A stretch of 37,860 bases of DNA, taken from a virus. Its lineage: Duplodnaviria; Heunggongvirae; Uroviricota; Caudoviricetes. The position numbers and the translations under genes were made by a program. A model generated the notes under the pieces. That model saw only the letters and a program-made list of their open reading frames with translations. It made no database searches and had not been told where the DNA came from. Positions 2,812 to 32,477 of this stretch are shown here, piece by piece. Each line of letters opens with the position of its first letter. Within the stretch, counting starts at the first letter, position 1. Location of the stretch: the IMG/VR virus record IMGVR_UViG_2541047762_000007. The stretch is one strand, 5' to 3'.

Positions 2812-4398
2812 TCACGCCGCCCTCACGATATAGTTAAATGCGATATTGCGGGGGCGAGCTGATACATAAGCCCACCAGTCATATCTTTGTGCACCTTTAG
2901 AGGATGCATCAAATATCCACTTTTTGCCATTTATGACCCCCAGTTGATTAGAGGTTAAAGCGTCACCAAATCCGTATTGTGTAGAGCCGAGCGAACTGAT
3001 ATCTCCGGTATTATTATCATCAAAACCGGATACGATAGTCCCTTCCTGAAATGAAAGTACCGTACGCCCGGTATCAACCTTGCGACCACCGTCCCATCCA
3101 CGGATAAACTCACCGCGCAAATCGGGAAGACGGAGGGTCGGGTAGACTCTGGCCAGAACAGGATATTGTTCTTTGGTGAACGTAGCTCCGTTGCACTGTA
3201 ACCAGCCTGCTGGCGGTGTGGCGGTGGGCCATGGAACCGGTACACCAACAGGCAATGCAGAGCCTTCCCCCAAACCAAGGTAATTGAGGACATCTTTTAT
3301 ACTGCCCTTAGCGATAATAGCGCGACCAATAGCTGTAAGGGTTGCCAGCGCTGCGCGGTCTGCTCCGGTAAAATAAGGCAACCGATCTGCTGCAGTGGCA
3401 AGTCCTGCCAGAGCAGTGAGCGTGGCATCTGCCGGTTGTTTTCCGTTTGCCAGATCGTATGCAGCCTTGACGGCCTTTGGTGTGGCGGCCAGCGTTTCAG
3501 ACGTGCTGTTGATGGCGCTGCTCAATTGTACGGTGCCTTTTGCCGTCAGCGAGGCAGCAGGCACTCCCGTTATCTGACTCCACGGGTGAGTGTGGCTGAC
3601 GGGCGCCTTGCCGGCTGCAAGGTCGTATGCAGCCTTGACGGCCTTTGGTGTGGCGGCCAGCGTTTCAGACGTGCTGTTGATGGCGCTGCTCAATTGTACG
3701 GTGCCTTTTGCCGTCAGCGAGGCAGCAGGCACTCCCGTTATCTGACTCCACGGGTGAGTGTGGCTGACGGGCGCCTTGCCGGCTGCAAGGTCGTATGCAG
3801 CCTTGACGGCCTTTGGTGTGGCGGCCAGCGTTTCAGACGTGCTGTTGATGGCACTGCTCAGTTGTACGATCCCTTTACGGGTCGTTGTTGCATCCTGGGC
3901 TGTGTATTTTCCCCGGGCCAGATCATACGCGATTTTCACAGCCTTCGGCGTGGCAGCCTCAGTTTCTGATTGACTGTCCGTGGCACTGCTCAGCTGTACG
4001 GTGCCTTTTGCCGTCAGCGAGGCAGCAGGCACTCCCGTTATCTGACTCCACGGGTGAGTGTGACTGACGGGTGCCTTGCCGGCTGCAAGGTCGTATGCAG
4101 CCTTGACGGCTTTTGGTGTGGCGGCCAGCGTTTCAGAGGTGCTGTTGGTGGCACTGCTCAGTTGGGTGAACCCCTTAGCTGTCAGTGTCGCGTCCGGGTG
4201 GTTACGGGAACGTACGTGTTCAGCCAGTGACTGTGCGGCTTCCTCCGTTTTTTTCTTCAGCCATTTCGTCCTGTTTGCCAGTTGCCGGGGGGCTCGATTT
4301 GATATCCCGTCTGCACCACCCAGAACCGGATCTGATGTCTCCAGTTGATAGATATTTTCTTCCCACTTTTCTGTTTCATTCAGGTTTCCCATAATCAA
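2812..4398 (-). CDS. Tail fibre protein with internal tandem repeats
   Basis: 528-aa ORF with repeated fibre motifs (TAKGTVQLSSAxxSTSETLAATPKAVKAAYDLA, SHTHPW). C-terminal part lies inside the invertible segment. Position matches Mu S. Confidence 0.9.
   Translation of the reverse strand: MIMGNLNETEKWEENIYQLETSDPVLGGADGISNRAPRQLANRTKWLKKKTEEAAQSLAEHVRSRNHPDATLTAKGFTQLSSATNSTSETLAATPKAVKAAYDLAAGKAPVSHTHPWSQITGVPAASLTAKGTVQLSSATDSQSETEAATPKAVKIAYDLARGKYTAQDATTTRKGIVQLSSAINSTSETLAATPKAVKAAYDLAAGKAPVSHTHPWSQITGVPAASLTAKGTVQLSSAINSTSETLAATPKAVKAAYDLAAGKAPVSHTHPWSQITGVPAASLTAKGTVQLSSAINSTSETLAATPKAVKAAYDLANGKQPADATLTALAGLATAADRLPYFTGADRAALATLTAIGRAIIAKGSIKDVLNYLGLGEGSALPVGVPVPWPTATPPAGWLQCNGATFTKEQYPVLARVYPTLRLPDLRGEFIRGWDGGRKVDTGRTVLSFQEGTIVSGFDDNNTGDISSLGSTQYGFGDALTSNQLGVINGKKWIFDASSKGAQRYDWWAYVSARPRNIAFNYIVRAA
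3061..3290. repeat. Right inverted repeat of invertible tail-fibre segment (gix-like site at 3265..3290)
   Basis: Reverse complement matches 1674..1889. TTCCCCCAAACCAAGG at 3265..3280 is the inverted partner of the left site. Confidence 0.7.
3440..4200. repeat. 168-bp (56-aa) tandem repeats within tail fibre gene
   Basis: Three near-identical units are in register at ~3455, 3623 and 3791, followed by two more diverged units. The plus-strand shadow ORF 3436..3969 shows the same period. Confidence 0.85.
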
Positions 4399-4973
4399 CT
4401 GCTCCCGTGGTTATAACTGCCATCATGGATGGCAGTATTGTTATAGCGAATGGCCACAGACTGATACTCCAGGCTGGCCAGATGGCAGCGGGCCGGTGCA
4501 AATGCAGCCAGCGTCTGACGCAGCATCGCGGCCTGATCGTTAGTAATGGGCTGTTTCAGAATAACGCGATAAACTGCCCAGGCGGCTGCATCTCCATGAA
4601 CAAACAGTCCGTTATAGCTGCGATTGCCGTCGTAACTGAGACGACCTGTGCCTTCAATCAGATCCACTTCACCAAAGCCAAAACGGCGGATAACTTCCCG
4701 GATTGACCACGGCGTCCCTTTATACCGGTGCAGTTCGATGGCTGCTTTTATAAGCATGCGGCGAACATCGTCCGATTCCGCCAGCTCCCAGCCATCGCCA
4801 GACAGTGAGAACTGCTCGCCCAGCCATGGCAGCGCGGAACTGTCGACGATATCGACGAGAAAGACCATCAGTACGCTCAGGTCGATGTTATCCAGCCGTC
4901 CTGCCAGTCTTCCCAGCGTCCTGAGACTGATATCACCCTCAAGCGGTGGCGGGAGTTGTAATGGCTCAGTCAT
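4395..4973 (-). CDS. Baseplate protein (P2 gpI / Mu gp48-like)
   Basis: Size and position between the baseplate J-like gene and the tail fibre; overlaps its neighbours. Confidence 0.7.
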   Translation of the reverse strand: MTEPLQLPPPLEGDISLRTLGRLAGRLDNIDLSVLMVFLVDIVDSSALPWLGEQFSLSGDGWELAESDDVRRMLIKAAIELHRYKGTPWSIREVIRRFGFGEVDLIEGTGRLSYDGNRSYNGLFVHGDAAAWAVYRVILKQPITNDQAAMLRQTLAAFAPARCHLASLEYQSVAIRYNNTAIHDGSYNHGSS

Positions 4974-26548: not shown

Positions 26549-27025
26549 ATGACGCAGACACTGAATCCGGTCATCACTGTCACCGTGTCCGGTCCTGTGG
26601 GCAGCGGTAAAAGTTACATATTGGCGCGGATAGAGGAAGTGGTGAAACAGGAATTCGGAAACAGCGTCATTGTCGATGCTGCTGACGTGGAGAATGAGCG
26701 CCGTATGAATGGCGAAGATCTGACGACCTGGCAGAAGCCACGGGGTGGCACAGTGATCAGGCTAGAGGAATACACGGGACAGGGCCTGTTGTCATACGGC
26801 GAGGAGCGTATCTGTCGGACGAATGAGCTGCTGGATGTTATATGCCCCACGGGCCGGCAACCCTGGATACTGCCCGATGCACTGCATGCCACCATTGCGG
26901 CACTGATGACAGTTTACGATCAGGAGCTGCTCATGAAGGAGTTACGTAAACTCACCGGTCAGCCAACAGAATGTTGTTCGTCTCCGAAGTACGGCAAACA
27001 GGAAAACGCCCCGGATAATCCTTAA
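26549..27025 (+). CDS. Small P-loop (Walker A) protein, unknown function
   Basis: 158 aa with GPVGSGKS Walker A and a possible Walker B (VIVDAAD). Strong SD (AGAGGAG); on the opposite strand to the late operon. Confidence 0.6.
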   Translation: MTQTLNPVITVTVSGPVGSGKSYILARIEEVVKQEFGNSVIVDAADVENERRMNGEDLTTWQKPRGGTVIRLEEYTGQGLLSYGEERICRTNELLDVICPTGRQPWILPDALHATIAALMTVYDQELLMKELRKLTGQPTECCSSPKYGKQENAPDNP

Positions 27026-27044
27026 GATACCTCCTGAACAGAAA

Positions 27045-27060
27045 CAGCCCTGAAGGGCTG
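27045..27060. terminator. Hairpin between convergent genes (likely terminator for 27063..27653)
   Basis: CAGCCC-TGAA-GGGCTG stem-loop; on the minus strand it is followed by TTTCTGTT. Confidence 0.5.
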
Positions 27061-27062
27061 CA

Positions 27063-27653
27063 CTAAAAAAAGAAGTGTATTATTGCCCAAACAGCTATAA
27101 CGATGATTCCCAGCCCAAGAGCCGATTCTAACTTATCTTTGGCAGTCATTTTTACTGTTGTAGCGGGCGCAGGTAAGTCTTGCTGCTGTGGATTTTCTGT
27201 TAGTTGTTTACGAGAAGAAACATCGCCCCTGTTAGTTTGCTTCATGTTGATTACAGATGCGTTATGGGCATTATCAGCAGCAATTGACTGAAGTTTTACA
27301 AAAGTTTTTGAATCTGTTTTAGCCAGAAGTAACCTATTTCCCGTAAACATTGCCTTAAAAGTGATAGTTTTTTTCGTCTTGTCCGCCGCACCAAGCAAAC
27401 CTCCAATGACCAACCCTGCACCACCAAAGATTAATCCACCAAGCAAACCTGCGCCTGCCGCCTTACCTATACGGCTTTCCTCTTCACTATCCGCAAGTTC
27501 AATCGATAAAAGCTCTTCTTTCAGATTTAATACAATATTTTCAGGAAAGCCTTGTTTTGGTTTTTTGGCAAACACGATGGTACCGAACCCCATGCTTGCC
27601 CACCCTTTAGGAAAACTTCCTGCGATAACCTGAATCCCTGCCATGTTCATCAC
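27063..27653 (-). CDS. Glycine-zipper membrane protein, unknown function
   Basis: 196 aa, AT-rich codons, central GxxxG-rich hydrophobic region (AAGAGLLGGLIFGGAGLVIGGLLGAA) and C-terminal transmembrane helix. Confidence 0.55.
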   Translation of the reverse strand: MMNMAGIQVIAGSFPKGWASMGFGTIVFAKKPKQGFPENIVLNLKEELLSIELADSEEESRIGKAAGAGLLGGLIFGGAGLVIGGLLGAADKTKKTITFKAMFTGNRLLLAKTDSKTFVKLQSIAADNAHNASVINMKQTNRGDVSSRKQLTENPQQQDLPAPATTVKMTAKDKLESALGLGIIVIAVWAIIHFFF

Positions 27654-27734: not shown

Positions 27735-28721
27735 CTATTTAAGAATAAAACGGTACTTACTGTCAGGAGTGCTTTGCTGATCAAGTAGCAGTGAACGACA
27801 TGGAGCAGTCAAAACCCGAGCATAACTACCATCAGGGCTTATGTTAATGTAACAAACCTTGCCCTTAACACTATAATTTTCGGGGACGGATGCCTTTGCT
27901 GATACAGTAAATTTAAGGGTATGCCAGCCCGTTTTTTGCTTGTAGCTTGAAACCGAATGGAAATCATCTGAGTACTTATTTAACCCTGGAAACATGCTGC
28001 GCAGTGCGGGGATGGAATCTTCTATTATTTTATCGTTGGTTTTAATGTTAAAAACGCTGGTTTCAGTAGAAGCTACTGCTTTGGCATTTCCCCATTTACC
28101 AGCGAACACAATCATTCCCACGAAAAATATTGCTACAAGAACTAACACTCCCCCCAACACTACTACATGAGGCTTCCGGCTTCTGGTTGGTACAGTTGCG
28201 ACTGATTTTGCACCGCTTTCCGATGGAGGTGATAGAGTTTTACTCTCATCACGAATATTCAGCAGATCATCAAAATAACCAAACACAGCCTGCAACTGCT
28301 CTTTGTCTAGGCCTTTAAGATGGGTTGTACCGAAATGCTTCAGACAGTATCTGTCACGGTCAAGACGATACCCAGGGTCAGTAAGCGCCATTATTTTGCT
28401 GACCAGAAGATTACAGTCCTTCATATTCTGGATCTGTTGTGCATATCTCTGAAGGATCTCAACCGCACCATGATAATCAGCCGCAGTCATTTCATTAACT
28501 GTTTTGGTATTAAGTTTCGTGTGGATCGTCATCCATAGCTCGCGCTTACTTTCCCCCAGATCAACCAATTCATCCATCAATCTGTGTAAATCGCGTTTTT
28601 GCAGCAACGAAATTGGTTGCTGGGCCGAAGGAAGTATGTCAGCAGAATAGTTATGAATGGTAACATCACCGCTGACAACGTTACCCACATCCCCGTTAAC
28701 TGTTTGCTTCTCTTTACTCAT
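27735..28721 (-). CDS. Bitopic membrane protein co-transcribed with repressor (candidate superinfection-exclusion/defence protein)
   Basis: 328 aa, start overlaps repressor stop. Single transmembrane helix (HVVVLGGVLVLVAIFFVGMIVFAGKW) splits an ~185-aa N-terminal domain from an ~120-aa C-terminal domain. N-terminal motif GDVGNVVSGDVTI echoes the repressor C-terminus. Confidence 0.6.
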   Translation of the reverse strand: MSKEKQTVNGDVGNVVSGDVTIHNYSADILPSAQQPISLLQKRDLHRLMDELVDLGESKRELWMTIHTKLNTKTVNEMTAADYHGAVEILQRYAQQIQNMKDCNLLVSKIMALTDPGYRLDRDRYCLKHFGTTHLKGLDKEQLQAVFGYFDDLLNIRDESKTLSPPSESGAKSVATVPTRSRKPHVVVLGGVLVLVAIFFVGMIVFAGKWGNAKAVASTETSVFNIKTNDKIIEDSIPALRSMFPGLNKYSDDFHSVSSYKQKTGWHTLKFTVSAKASVPENYSVKGKVCYINISPDGSYARVLTAPCRSLLLDQQSTPDSKYRFILK

Positions 28722-29179
28722 CTTCTCTTGGTATTTTTGTTCATTATTCCACCTGTTCCTATGGTTACGTTACCTTTGATAACATTCCCCAGAACATCTC
28801 CATGAATAACCTGTTCCGCCCGTTCTCTGGAGGAGCCAGTAGTCAAGGCCGACAAAACTGAACCTTTGACCTGTAATGGTGCCTGCCGGTAGTGCTGCAG
28901 TAACTCCATTTCATCACGTGATAAAGTTATACCTGATGACTCCCCGGTAAGAATGAACTGTACATTGGCCCCAATTCTTGCAAAGGCTGCAAGTAACTCA
29001 CCTCCGGGAACAGCAACCCCTCGTTCATATTTCCCCCACATTTCTCTTGAAACGCCACAAAGGGCTGCTACTTCAGCCTGCTTGAGTGATAACCGCGAAC
29101 GCTCAGCTTTGAACCGCGACGCGCAAAGAGAATCAAAATTCACATAAACCTCATTGACAATGAGAACAATAGTTCTCAT
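28718..29179 (-). CDS. XRE/Cro-C1-type HTH repressor (immunity repressor candidate)
   Basis: HTH segment LSLKQAEVAALCGVSREMWGKYERG; divergent from the early operon. True start may be the GTG at 29143, since operator-like palindromes cover 29150..29179. Confidence 0.75.
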   Translation of the reverse strand: MRTIVLIVNEVYVNFDSLCASRFKAERSRLSLKQAEVAALCGVSREMWGKYERGVAVPGGELLAAFARIGANVQFILTGESSGITLSRDEMELLQHYRQAPLQVKGSVLSALTTGSSRERAEQVIHGDVLGNVIKGNVTIGTGGIMNKNTKRR

Positions 29180-29182
29180 AAT
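29150..29182. promoter_or_regulatory. Operator-like palindromes overlapping early promoter
   Basis: Perfect palindromes CTCATTG-A-CAATGAG (29150..29164) and ATGAGAAC-AATA-GTTCTCAT (29160..29179). Consensus -35 TTGACA at 29154..29159 and CATAAT at 29177..29182 with 17-bp spacing, facing the Ner/Cro-like gene. Confidence 0.6.
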
Positions 29183-29229
29183 CTATCACATATAAAACAA
29201 ACATCATTGCATCAACAAAGGAGACAACA

Positions 29230-29418
29230 ATGACTTCCGAACAAGTTAAAAATCTCTTCCGTCAGCGTGGTATCACGTTTACCCGCTGGGCCGAAGAACA
29301 CGGCTACAGCCGCAATGAGGTCTATCGTGTTCTCAATGGACAGACCAAAGCTCGTTACGGCAAAGCCCATGAAATTGCCGTAAAACTGGGATTAAAACCC
29401 ACGTCAAATGCGGCATAA
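29230..29418 (+). CDS. Ner/Cro-like small DNA-binding early regulator
   Basis: 62-aa basic protein, first gene of the rightward operon, divergent from repressor; SD AAAGGAGA upstream. Confidence 0.65.
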   Translation: MTSEQVKNLFRQRGITFTRWAEEHGYSRNEVYRVLNGQTKARYGKAHEIAVKLGLKPTSNAA

Positions 29419-30707: not shown

Positions 30708-32477
30708 ATGAATGCTGCCCTGACTGAACGACTGGTTTATGTCGCCCGCGCGGCACGTGACGCGGGGCATGGTAAACGCGGTGCAATATACGACGCTGCC
30801 TGTGCTGAACTTGGCATGTCCCGCGCCACTCTGCTGCGCAGGCTGAAGGAGGTCTCTGTGACTGATAAACGCAAAAAACGCGCCGATGCCGGGCGCAGCG
30901 CCCTGACCCGCGACGAAGCCGCGCTGATATCTGCCACACTGCGTGAGGCCACCCGCAAGAACGGTAAGCGTCTCTATTCCATCGCGGATGCAGTGGAAAC
31001 CCTGCGGGCTAACGGCTTTATCTCCGCAGGCAGAACAGATGAAACCACCGGTGAGTTTTTCCCGTTGTCCGAAGATGCCATCAGCCGAGCCCTGCGTAAC
31101 TATGGCCTGCACCCGGAACAACTGGATGCCCCTGCACCACATACTGAAGTGGCCAGTCTGCATCCCAATCATGTCTGGCAGATTGATGCCTCGCTCTGCA
31201 CGCTTTACTACCTGAGTAATGGACACAAAGGACTGCAGGTGATGGACAGCGCGAAGTTCTACAAGAACAAGCCCGCTAACCTTGCCCGTATCGCCAGTGA
31301 CCGCGTGTGGAGTTACGAGATTACCGACCATGCCAGCGGCTGGATTTACGTTGAGTATGTGACGGGTGCGGAATCCGGTGAGAACCTGTGTTCTGTGCTT
31401 ATCAACGCCATGCAGGAGCGTGGCGGCGCAGACGTGCTGCACGGCGTGCCAAAAATACTCTATCTCGACCCCGGCTCGGCAAACACCGCGGGTATGACGA
31501 AAAACATGTGCCGCTCACTGGGCATTGACCTGATAGCGCACAAGCCGCATAACGCCCGCGCCACCGGACAGGTGGAAAAGGCGCGTGACATTATCGAACG
31601 CAAGCTGGAGCCGGGTCTGAAGTTCCGGCCGGTTCACAGTCTGGAAGAACTCAACGCGCTGGCCGCGAAATGGCGCAGCCACTTTAACGCCACGGCTGTT
31701 CACAGCCGCCACGGTAAAACCCGCACGGATATCTGGCTGAAGATTACTACTGAGCAGCTGAAAAAAGCGCCTTCCGTTGAGGTATGTCGTGAACTGGCTG
31801 TGGCGGCACCAGAACTCCGCAAAGTCACGCCAAAACTTCGTGTCTCGTTCCGGGGCACTGAATTTGACGTATCAACGGTACCGGGCGTACTGGTCGGTGA
31901 AAAACTGATGATTACCCGTAACCCGTGGCGCAGCGATGTGGCACAGGTGGTTCTGACCGGTGAGGACGGCCACGAGACGTTCTTCCTGGTCGAAGAGGTC
32001 AGAAAGAACGAGTTTGGCTTTGCTGAAGGCGCGGCGGTATTTGGCGAAAGTTACAAAGCCCTGCCGGAAACACCGGCGCAGACGGCGGCAAAAGAAACTG
32101 AAGCGCTGGTCACCGGTACAGACAACGCCACAGATGCAGCTGCCGCACGCAAGGCGAAGGCGCTGCCGTTCGGCGGGCGGCTTGACCCGTATAAACATAT
32201 TGATGACGCCACACTTCCGGCCTATATGCCGAAGCGCGGTCAGGCCTCTGACGTACGCGGGCCGCGCACTGAACAACGTCCCATGACTCATGTGGAGGCC
32301 GCGAAAGCCCTGCGCGATAAGTTCAGCGCCGACGGCCTTACCTGGACGCCGGAACATTACCGCCAGTTAACGGCACAGTACCCGGACGGCGTACCGGAAG
32401 CCGCACTGGATGAAGTCATGGCCACGCTGACCACGCCGGCACGCAGCAGTGTTATCAGCATTGTTAACGGCAACTGA
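30708..32477 (+). CDS. DDE transposase (Mu A-like)
   Basis: 589 aa with N-terminal HTH-like region and an integrase-type catalytic core (HVWQIDAS, LYLDPGSANTA, ATGQVEKA); followed by a MuB-like ATPase. Confidence 0.8.
   Translation: MNAALTERLVYVARAARDAGHGKRGAIYDAACAELGMSRATLLRRLKEVSVTDKRKKRADAGRSALTRDEAALISATLREATRKNGKRLYSIADAVETLRANGFISAGRTDETTGEFFPLSEDAISRALRNYGLHPEQLDAPAPHTEVASLHPNHVWQIDASLCTLYYLSNGHKGLQVMDSAKFYKNKPANLARIASDRVWSYEITDHASGWIYVEYVTGAESGENLCSVLINAMQERGGADVLHGVPKILYLDPGSANTAGMTKNMCRSLGIDLIAHKPHNARATGQVEKARDIIERKLEPGLKFRPVHSLEELNALAAKWRSHFNATAVHSRHGKTRTDIWLKITTEQLKKAPSVEVCRELAVAAPELRKVTPKLRVSFRGTEFDVSTVPGVLVGEKLMITRNPWRSDVAQVVLTGEDGHETFFLVEEVRKNEFGFAEGAAVFGESYKALPETPAQTAAKETEALVTGTDNATDAAAARKAKALPFGGRLDPYKHIDDATLPAYMPKRGQASDVRGPRTEQRPMTHVEAAKALRDKFSADGLTWTPEHYRQLTAQYPDGVPEAALDEVMATLTTPARSSVISIVNGN

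Follow-up and report, generated by a model that had tools for sequence, protein, structure and literature searches.

The induction cues of Mu-like and P2-like prophages, and of other prophages without a LexA-type repressor, are poorly understood, and a locus in a prophage of Escherichia coli bears on this question. The window, i.e., the whole stretch of DNA that was analysed (37,860 nucleotides, IMG/VR virus record IMGVR_UViG_2541047762_000007), is a Mu-like transposable prophage of 37.9 kb. Between positions 27,735 and 29,179 its minus strand carries a repressor gene followed by the gene of a membrane protein, here termed the partner. The C-terminal tail of the repressor and the N-terminal tail of the partner, both predicted to be disordered, share a beta-prone motif of ~19 residues, and this match recurs, type by type, in related loci. 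On balance, and with no more than a modest lean, we favour the view that the two genes form a cognate module, in which homotypic contact between the tails would tether or inactivate the repressor at the inner membrane as a switch of induction or immunity. The parts of the pair are as follows (HTH, helix-turn-helix; ORF, open reading frame; AF2, AlphaFold2; pLDDT, predicted local distance difference test).

28718–29179, minus strand: prophage repressor with an HTH of the XRE/Cro-CI type, ORF of 153 aa (ORF list and domain search)
28976–29116, minus strand: Pfam-matched segment of the repressor, HTH_31, residues 22–68 (Pfam; AF2 helices 15–78, pLDDT >90)
28838–28918, minus strand: two linker helices of the repressor, residues 88–114, LSRDEMELLQHYRQAPLQVKGSVLSALT (AF2, pLDDT ~90)
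28760–28822, minus strand: C-terminal matched motif of the repressor, RAEQVIHGDVLGNVIKGNVTI, residues 120–140 (BLASTP and shuffle test)
28721–28759, minus strand: basic end of the repressor, GTGGIMNKNTKRR (almost every motif type has K/R-rich residues after the motif)
28718–28721, minus strand: ATGA stop/start overlap of repressor and partner (sequence)
27735–28721, minus strand: partner gene, membrane protein of 328 aa (motif, Flk_N, membrane helix and periplasmic domain; PHROG 10002)
28656–28715, minus strand: N-terminal matched motif of the partner, KEKQTVNGDVGNVVSGDVTI, residues 3–22 (BLASTP and shuffle test)
28242–28631, minus strand: cytoplasmic helical Flk_N domain of the partner, residues ~31–160 (NCBIfam NF007987; PF27202; AF2)
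28098–28166, minus strand: predicted membrane helix of the partner, residues 186–208, VVVLGGVLVLVAIFFVGMIVFAG, with RSRKPH before it (hydropathy)
27738–28061, minus strand: predicted periplasmic alpha/beta domain of the partner, residues ~221–328 (AF2, pLDDT ~90; query-type partners only)

Within this prophage the resemblance of the two tails is statistically firm. BLASTP of the repressor against the partner aligns the two motifs with 11/21 identities and 17/21 positives (E=3e-4), and their Smith-Waterman score of 55, against 30.1 ± 4.4 in composition-preserving shuffles, was reached by 1 of 2000 shuffles. The original prediction, made from this DNA alone, had claimed such a shared motif, a 4-nt overlap of the genes and a membrane location for the downstream product; each of these holds, the overlap being the ATGA listed above and the membrane location resting on the single predicted helix. 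A third copy of the motif was not found, the best score to either motif being 38 among the 304 other ORFs of the window.

The match extends well beyond this prophage. Loci around relatives of the repressor were collected (39 genome and 80 viral loci; ~125 related loci overall), and at each of them the C-terminus of the repressor was compared with the N-terminus of the next gene. At least ten tail motifs occur among the repressors of these loci, and the product of the next gene downstream opens with the corresponding motif. The co-conservation in homologues on which the original prediction had made its proposal depend was thus observed, as the following pairs illustrate.

Repressor C-terminus ..INVSGQGNRVAGRDYNENKK; downstream N-terminus MTGGSMNNDVSGRENRTAGRDFHENI
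Repressor C-terminus ..FNGDISGQFAGNQIINNG; downstream N-terminus MRQEFNGTAQGQFSSRDIINI
Repressor C-terminus ..KIGGKGHRFALGDYHENK; downstream N-terminus MDRKIEITGQEHRIALGDYYEH
Repressor C-terminus ..FNGNIDGQVSAENIYNIG; downstream N-terminus MEQHFNHTVGQVAANNIYNIY
Repressor C-terminus ..AAGGVQVGYVGGSVN; downstream N-terminus ..GSGGVQVGKVDGDV
Repressor C-terminus ..FHGNTIGQVVDGDIKNQ; downstream N-terminus MNQQLFQHSQIGQVAAGDIINH

Further matched examples are KIGGKGHRFALGDYHENK with EITGQEHRIALGDYYEH, FNGNIDGQVSAENIYNIG with FNHTVGQVAANNIYNIY and VQQNIQGGVGQQVNGDLINH with IQQTIQGGVKQLAAGDIHNH. Among 40 non-redundant pairs, the Smith-Waterman score averages 40.1 for cognate combinations versus 22.6 (sd 8.6) for non-cognate ones, the observed cognate total was reached in 0 of 20,000 permutations, and 13 pairs have the cognate partner as the best of all 40. 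Within the NRxAGRDY type alone, cognate identity likewise exceeds permuted identity (p=0.013). The position of the match is equally specific. When every ORF on both strands of each locus was scanned against 79 distinct repressor tails, 52 tails found a best match scoring at least 35, the 99th percentile of all other ORFs being 32; for 43 of these 52 the best match was the immediately downstream gene, mostly aligned in its first 13 residues. Two more matches came from a partner displaced by one gene (L084) and a partner missed by the length filter (L107). Where a repressor relative has a helical segment at its end in place of the motif, the gene after it is unrelated. Two high-scoring candidates were discarded: a score of 75 at L033, an artefact that arises at ~4320–4400, where overlapping ORFs run through a tandem DNA repeat (VNGCKL..ANGCKLTGASS), and the top score at L038, a spurious hit against a second repressor paralogue.

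Both proteins change elsewhere, but their motifs remain matched. The repressor tail remains 82–89% identical in relatives whose HTH falls to 35–50% identity, a divergence that would mean different DNA specificities among repressors with the same motif; cognate pairs for this comparison were assigned from shared contigs, and L051 and L053 confirm the arrangement. On the other side, the partner motif is 84–96% identical while the remainder of the partner ranges over 40–85%, and within type A the Flk_N domain is 52–85% identical with both motifs nearly constant. The NRxAGRDY motif occurs both with partners that combine Flk_N and a transmembrane helix and with unrelated partners that combine a zinc-ribbon and transmembrane helices. 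Because the same motif pairs with unrelated partner architectures, what stays constant opposite each motif is the other one. A role of the motif as a specific interface between repressor and membrane protein is therefore strongly supported by these comparisons. The similarity is also no low-complexity artefact, as the shuffle and permutation tests indicate, and it is not a product of shared DNA: in 21 loci the same codon is used for only 93 of the 213 aligned residues that are identical, and the motif segments are 41–69% identical at the nucleotide level. Since synonymous sites are scrambled, the match is maintained by selection at the protein level, and codon usage rules out recent duplication or gene conversion as its source.

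The matched core has a median length of 19 residues and lies a median of 4 residues from the partner N-terminus and 6 from the repressor C-terminus. It is enriched in N (3.0x), G (2.2x), V (1.55x), Q (1.46x) and I (1.36x), as well as in H and D, and depleted of L (0.17x) and P (0.14x); K is only slightly reduced (0.78x), and W and C are absent. Such an N/G/V/I/Q-rich, L/P-poor bias has been reported for bacterial amyloid signalling sequences (BASS motifs) and for beta-helical proteins. Both motifs lie in disordered tails of the AF2 monomer models. Pseudo-repeats of the HET-s kind were sought in 53 partner N-termini and reached p<=0.01 in only one.

The architecture of the repressor indicates what the tail may replace. 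Its N-terminal part is an ordinary DNA-binding domain (HTH_31, E 4.7e-7; HTH_3/HTH_31 against the Pfam gathering scores, 30.5 bits vs 27, and 23 vs 23), and the nearest solved structure is the N-terminal domain of the P22 C2 repressor. The AF2 model shows a confident HTH and the two helices of residues 88–114, a segment kept in motif-bearing homologues, followed by a disordered tail at residues 115–153 (pLDDT 42–50) that holds the motif and the basic end; across motif types, K and R make up 35% of the last 8 residues. The domain search gave no Peptidase_S24 match in the repressor, whose C-terminal 39 residues are disordered instead. Because some relatives (P0092, P0093, P0102) do carry Peptidase_S24, the tail occupies the place of the LexA-type module for dimerisation and self-cleavage. 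Every type-A locus shows the 4-nt overlap with the partner gene, as do L124 and L125, and the other types have a gap of 3–36 nt. The overlap suggests translational coupling of the two genes, so the partner is likely present in lysogens.

The repressor is divergent from a ner-like gene, and between them lie a promoter and an operator-like repeat, both identified as pattern matches only by a consensus scan.

29154–29182, plus strand: early (ner-side) promoter, TTGACA-17-CATAAT, near-consensus sigma-70
29153–29167 and 29172–29186: 15-nt inverted repeat, a candidate operator overlapping the early promoter (repeat and promoter together, 29153–29186)

Because the annotated repressor ORF holds promoter and repeat within its first 12 codons and most homologues begin with MNFDSL, translation probably starts from the GTG at 29143, which would give a protein of 141 aa.

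The partner belongs to a small family. Its relatives form just 24 clusters at 90% identity, all from Enterobacterales, and no segment of their alignment is better conserved than the N-terminal motif, which hardly varies even where overall identity drops to 44%; K5, Q6, G10, G13, N14, V15, V16, S17, G18, V20, T21, I22 and Y25 are each conserved in at least 90%. An AF2 model built on the family alignment has disordered residues 1–30 (pLDDT 44), a helical domain at 31–160 (pLDDT >90), a low-confidence stretch that includes the hydrophobic helix 186–208, and a confident alpha/beta domain at 221–328. The NCBIfam profile of Flk (NF007987) matches residues 19–147 (E=2.9e-12), and eight other phage partners match it too; the score of 46.6 bits lies below the Flk equivalog cut-off of 353 and only the N-terminal 130 profile positions align, so the partner is not a full-length equivalent of Flk. 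Precomputed Pfam annotation of the partner (P0001) gives PF27202, Flk_N. The partner's cytoplasmic domain is thus homologous to the N-terminal domain of Flk, and both proteins are predicted to be cytoplasmic and held at the inner membrane by a C-terminal helix. The phage protein differs from Flk in being prophage-encoded, in standing beside a repressor, in its N-terminal motif and, here, in its extra periplasmic domain; bona fide Flk proteins (P0230, P0231) lack the N-terminal matched motif. The predicted topology, with one helix that has a basic N-side, would place the following 120-aa domain in the periplasm. Homology to Flk and a surplus of basic residues ahead of the membrane helix suggest that the N-terminus with the motif faces the cytoplasm, within reach of the DNA-binding repressor.

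An exhaustive profile search of 1.84 billion representatives returned only 111 clusters for the partner profile, ~65 of them Flk_N proteins with diverse N-terminal motifs and ~35 matching the periplasmic domain region alone. Since the latter align there alone, the periplasmic domain is a mobile module that this phage lineage has added to an Flk_N protein; the short variants P0022 and P0024 lack it. Many of the periplasmic-domain-only matches (P0136, P0141, P0147 and others) are short proteins of roughly 130–200 aa. Partners at other loci are Flk_N proteins with a tail anchor (~200 aa), zinc-ribbon proteins with membrane helices (~119 aa), other small membrane proteins and a few soluble ones, nearly all being membrane-anchored by prediction. 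Searches for function gave little: Foldseek of the partner model against the PDB returned nothing below E=0.04, a PDB sequence search with the partner returned no match, PHROGs of the partner families are labelled only as unknown function or 'membrane protein', PADLOC found no defence family, and the domain and defence searches found no NLR or Bell match. A Pfam search with the partner and five other partners gave no match beyond a weak hint of the Mu GemA family (PF06252, E=0.09) in the Flk_N domain of the L012 partner. A helical unit, '..FG....L..L...QL..V..Y', is common to the Flk_N domain (partner residues 31–160) and to the small soluble partners of L029, L108 and L118, and a gp16/GemA protein is also encoded in this prophage. 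A distant relationship between Flk_N and GemA may exist.

How could two such tails act? The HTH, the linker helices and the globular domain of the partner all vary while the motifs stay matched, which makes a homotypic beta-strand contact the simplest reading. The two motifs would make a direct like-with-like contact, either a zipper of beta-strands or a cross-beta stack, bringing the repressor under the control of a membrane-bound partner made from the same transcript, so that it could be sequestered or inactivated at the inner membrane. Such a module would serve as a switch of induction or immunity at the place that, in LexA-type repressors of the same HTH family, is taken by the S24 domain for self-cleavage and dimerisation, and the periplasmic domain of the query type would be a candidate sensor. 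Both the direct binding of the tails and its regulatory outcome, control of immunity or induction, are what we infer from the sequences. The original prediction had envisaged a heterotypic interface that tethers the repressor to a membrane sensor. A specific interface is borne out by the co-variation, but its character is homotypic; anchoring at the membrane agrees with prediction, but a general sensor role does not stand, because most partners are simple tail-anchored or even soluble proteins without a periplasmic domain.

Several observations weigh against the homotypic switch. Constant co-expression of a repressor with its own inactivator requires a trigger, and the periplasmic domain, the only obvious sensing part, is missing from most family members. 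The partners of L029, L108 and L118 have no predicted membrane helix. In a reciprocal check of nine diverse Flk_N proteins, a matched HTH repressor was found upstream in six, immediately so in L123, L124, L125, L127 (score 62) and L128 and with an 88-aa ORF between repressor and Flk_N gene in L122, a P2-like prophage; in the remaining three (L121, L126, L129) no repressor was found near the Flk_N gene despite such N-termini. The motif can thus exist without a repressor partner, and the module, on these counts, is portable across phage types and not obligatory for Flk_N proteins.

A bolder form of the homotypic contact, possible although we would not expect it, is a prion-like lysogeny switch. 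If the membrane-anchored Flk_N protein clustered, its N-terminal motif would be nucleated into a cross-beta fold, which would template the motif of the repressor tail and pull the repressor irreversibly from solution, leading to induction without the SOS response. The many matched motif types would then insulate co-resident prophages from each other.

Gene pairs with such a layout are known from amyloid signalling (HET-s/NWD2; BASS1-10 in Bell/NLR pairs; BASS11 in Bab/Agp, an antiphage system of E. coli), in which likewise the C-terminal copy comes first and the N-terminal copy lies in the next gene, and in which motifs of ~20 residues, rich in G/N/Q/V/I and poor in L/P, form many families matched within the pair. 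Our pairs share with the FASS and BASS systems the C- and N-terminal copies in adjacent genes and the G/N/Q/V/I bias over ~20–25 aa, but not the carriers, a sensor and a cell-death or immune effector. The known pairs join an effector (HeLo/Bell/Bab, TIR, CHAT) to an NLR/STAND or TPR sensor, whereas here an XRE HTH repressor is joined to an Flk_N membrane protein; their motif is ~25 aa long, compared with a median of 19 aa here, and a basic end follows the repressor copy. In open-access papers and preprints we found no description of a repressor/Flk_N motif pair or of a link between Flk-like proteins and prophage repressors; the amyloid signalling pairs found in the open-access literature are NLR/Bell-type and Bab/Agp systems only, with no mention of HTH proteins, repressors or prophage control. 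Matched-motif gene pairs are already known, and their combination of a prophage repressor with a membrane-anchored protein is a new functional setting.

For the outcome, inactivation of a repressor without cleavage, there are precedents in RstC, which acts on RstR (CTX-phi/RS1), and Qtip, which acts on cI (VP882); these phage proteins bind the repressor and render it insoluble or draw it into foci. Both are small, soluble and made on a signal, neither is membrane-anchored, co-transcribed with the repressor or equipped with a shared motif, and they have no sequence relationship to the partner, so they are not homologues. LexA-type repressors such as lambda CI and P22 C2 (HTH plus Peptidase_S24) share the HTH family of the repressor studied here, which has two helices and a disordered motif tail in place of the S24 domain; RecA-dependent cleavage is accordingly not expected. 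The Mu repressor (Rep) has a C-terminal tail that controls its sensitivity to ClpXP, and its DNA-binding fold is not an XRE HTH. It resembles the present system in belonging to a transposable prophage of the Mu kind, in its regulatory C-terminal tail and in lacking an SOS-type cleavage domain; the gene order around the repressor differs, and no gene for a motif-matched partner is known in Mu.

The known use of shared-motif pairs, the control of membrane effectors, suggests that the direction of action might be reversed. The membrane protein would then be an effector of superinfection exclusion or abortive infection that the repressor tail holds inactive, and loss or titration of the repressor would free the partner motif for self-association and action at the membrane, as a shared motif switches on HET-S and Bab. 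It would fit this reading that Mu-like lysogens can have exclusion genes co-transcribed with the repressor and that some Flk_N proteins bear the motif with no repressor nearby. PADLOC, however, recognised no defence family, the anchor is a plain C-terminal helix, and no pore-forming or toxic domain was recognised; moreover, because the motif replaces the S24 domain of the repressor, it is the repressor on which it is suggested to act. We regard the reversed direction as rather unlikely.

Both tails might instead be read by a common third factor, one protease, chaperone or phage protein, with the partner as a decoy or competitor that sets repressor stability, after the model of the ClpXP-sensitive tail of the Mu repressor. 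Terminal, disordered motifs and a basic end on the repressor are typical of degron-like tails, and competitors for one site would be expected to resemble each other. What makes this explanation unlikely is that at least three motif types (GDVxGNV, FNGDxSGQF and NRVAGRDY), which occur in Enterobacterales phages with host proteases in common, are each matched only to their own neighbour, and that this prophage encodes no third motif-bearing protein.

A pseudo-ligand arrangement, in which the repressor tail binds the globular cytoplasmic domain of the partner and the partner N-terminus is a mimic in cis until a signal displaces it, would account for sequence similarity without homotypic binding, and a well-folded Flk_N domain does follow directly after the motif. 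It is very unlikely, since one motif type pairs with unrelated domains, Flk_N or zinc-ribbon, and since the Flk_N domain of type A varies as described while both motifs hardly change. Finally, although the motifs are short and compositionally biased, the idea that they have no function, being a chance G/N/V low-complexity resemblance or a remnant of recent local duplication or gene conversion, has a negligible probability, as it is refuted by the shuffle and permutation tests, the co-variation over at least ten types and the scrambled synonymous sites, and as the motifs are the most conserved part of both proteins.

The homotypic switch has consequences that can be addressed directly: each type of regulatory end on the repressor has its match at the start of a membrane-anchored protein, which yields a hypothesis testable by mutation. 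If this reading is true, it describes a membrane-coupled control of a phage repressor that is undescribed in the literature found, and it would give a function to the phage-borne Flk_N family, now annotated as hypothetical. The matched diversity of motifs would likewise be a new determinant of specificity alongside operator specificity. Should the contact be cross-beta, amyloid signalling would extend from immune cell-death pairs to the control of transcription factors, and a prion-like switch, if true, would supply an induction mechanism for non-SOS Mu-like and P2-like prophages.

A sister arrangement of the same two protein families occurs in Lonsdalea and Pseudomonas (loci L005–L009, L015, L017, L019, L021 and L093; P0154, P0156, P0166, P0194, P0204). 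Its repressor has a helical C-terminal domain (..VLKLVINH/R) without a G/N motif, and the Flk_N protein encoded downstream begins with a helix (..DDELVAKLS.RLTEEI.NLP), after which comes a beta-like stretch (IKIKGD.GNINLGTQ). The two families may here be coupled in another, heterotypic way. Some Flk_N genes are also immediately preceded by a conserved ORF of 86–90 aa (L121, 2732–3004; L122, 2095–2361; L126, 1744–2004) with the pattern ME..Y...ERP.FD......I.AA.D.WG.GA..M.V.I....GE.YR..RAWG..EY, which overlaps the Flk_N gene by 4 nt in L121 and L126 and lies between repressor and partner in L122.

The prophage that harbours the pair has a Mu-like gene set, comprising a DDE (rve) transposase, a MuB-like ATPase, Gam, GemA (gp16), Mor and Mu-type head genes; rve was identified by domain search, and the other genes are taken from the RefSeq annotation of an identical prophage in E. 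coli IAI39. The 1.5-kb repressor/partner region is present in 127 of 5426 complete E. coli genomes, each time as a single chromosomal copy. Diverged relatives of the immunity region occur in a few sequenced phages, and related forms of the two-gene module are found across Gamma- and Betaproteobacteria. The neighbouring features are listed below.

29230–29418, plus strand: ner-like HTH gene, divergent from the repressor
30708–32477, plus strand: rve transposase, right of the repressor/partner pair
27063–27653, minus strand: third gene of the leftward unit, glycine-zipper membrane protein of 196 aa (with the hairpin, the unit spans 27044–27653)
27044–27061, minus strand: terminator-like hairpin after the third gene, the sole such hairpin in the region

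Right of the pair, the plus strand also holds an IclR-type HTH gene and a DUF3102 gene; the IAI39 copy has ExeA/MuB-like, Gam, gp16 (GemA) and Mor annotated further right, and holin, SLT, portal (DUF935) and head genes leftward on the minus strand. The layout of the window, like that of L120, is unlike that of Mu: the immunity region sits mid-genome, the early operon (ner-like, transposase, MuB-like, Gam, GemA, Mor) runs rightward, and the lysis, head and tail genes run leftward from ~26450, whereas in Mu all genes run rightward from a repressor at the left end. In the 196-aa protein (PHROG 12025, function unknown) a hydrophobic stretch, GKAAGAGLLGGLIFGGAGLVIGGLLGAA, resembles a glycine zipper, and a membrane helix lies at the C-terminus. 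Its gene is not conserved in related loci carrying the same repressor/partner pair and, being absent from related phages with that pair, appears to occupy a variable cargo (moron) slot outside the conserved pair. A gene for a 158-aa P-loop protein stands alone on the plus strand (26549–27025), with the late (holin) operon on one side and the leftward repressor unit on the other; its product is labelled 'ABC transporter ATPase' in RefSeq, has only weak AAA/ABC-type matches and belongs to PHROG 3787 (function unknown).

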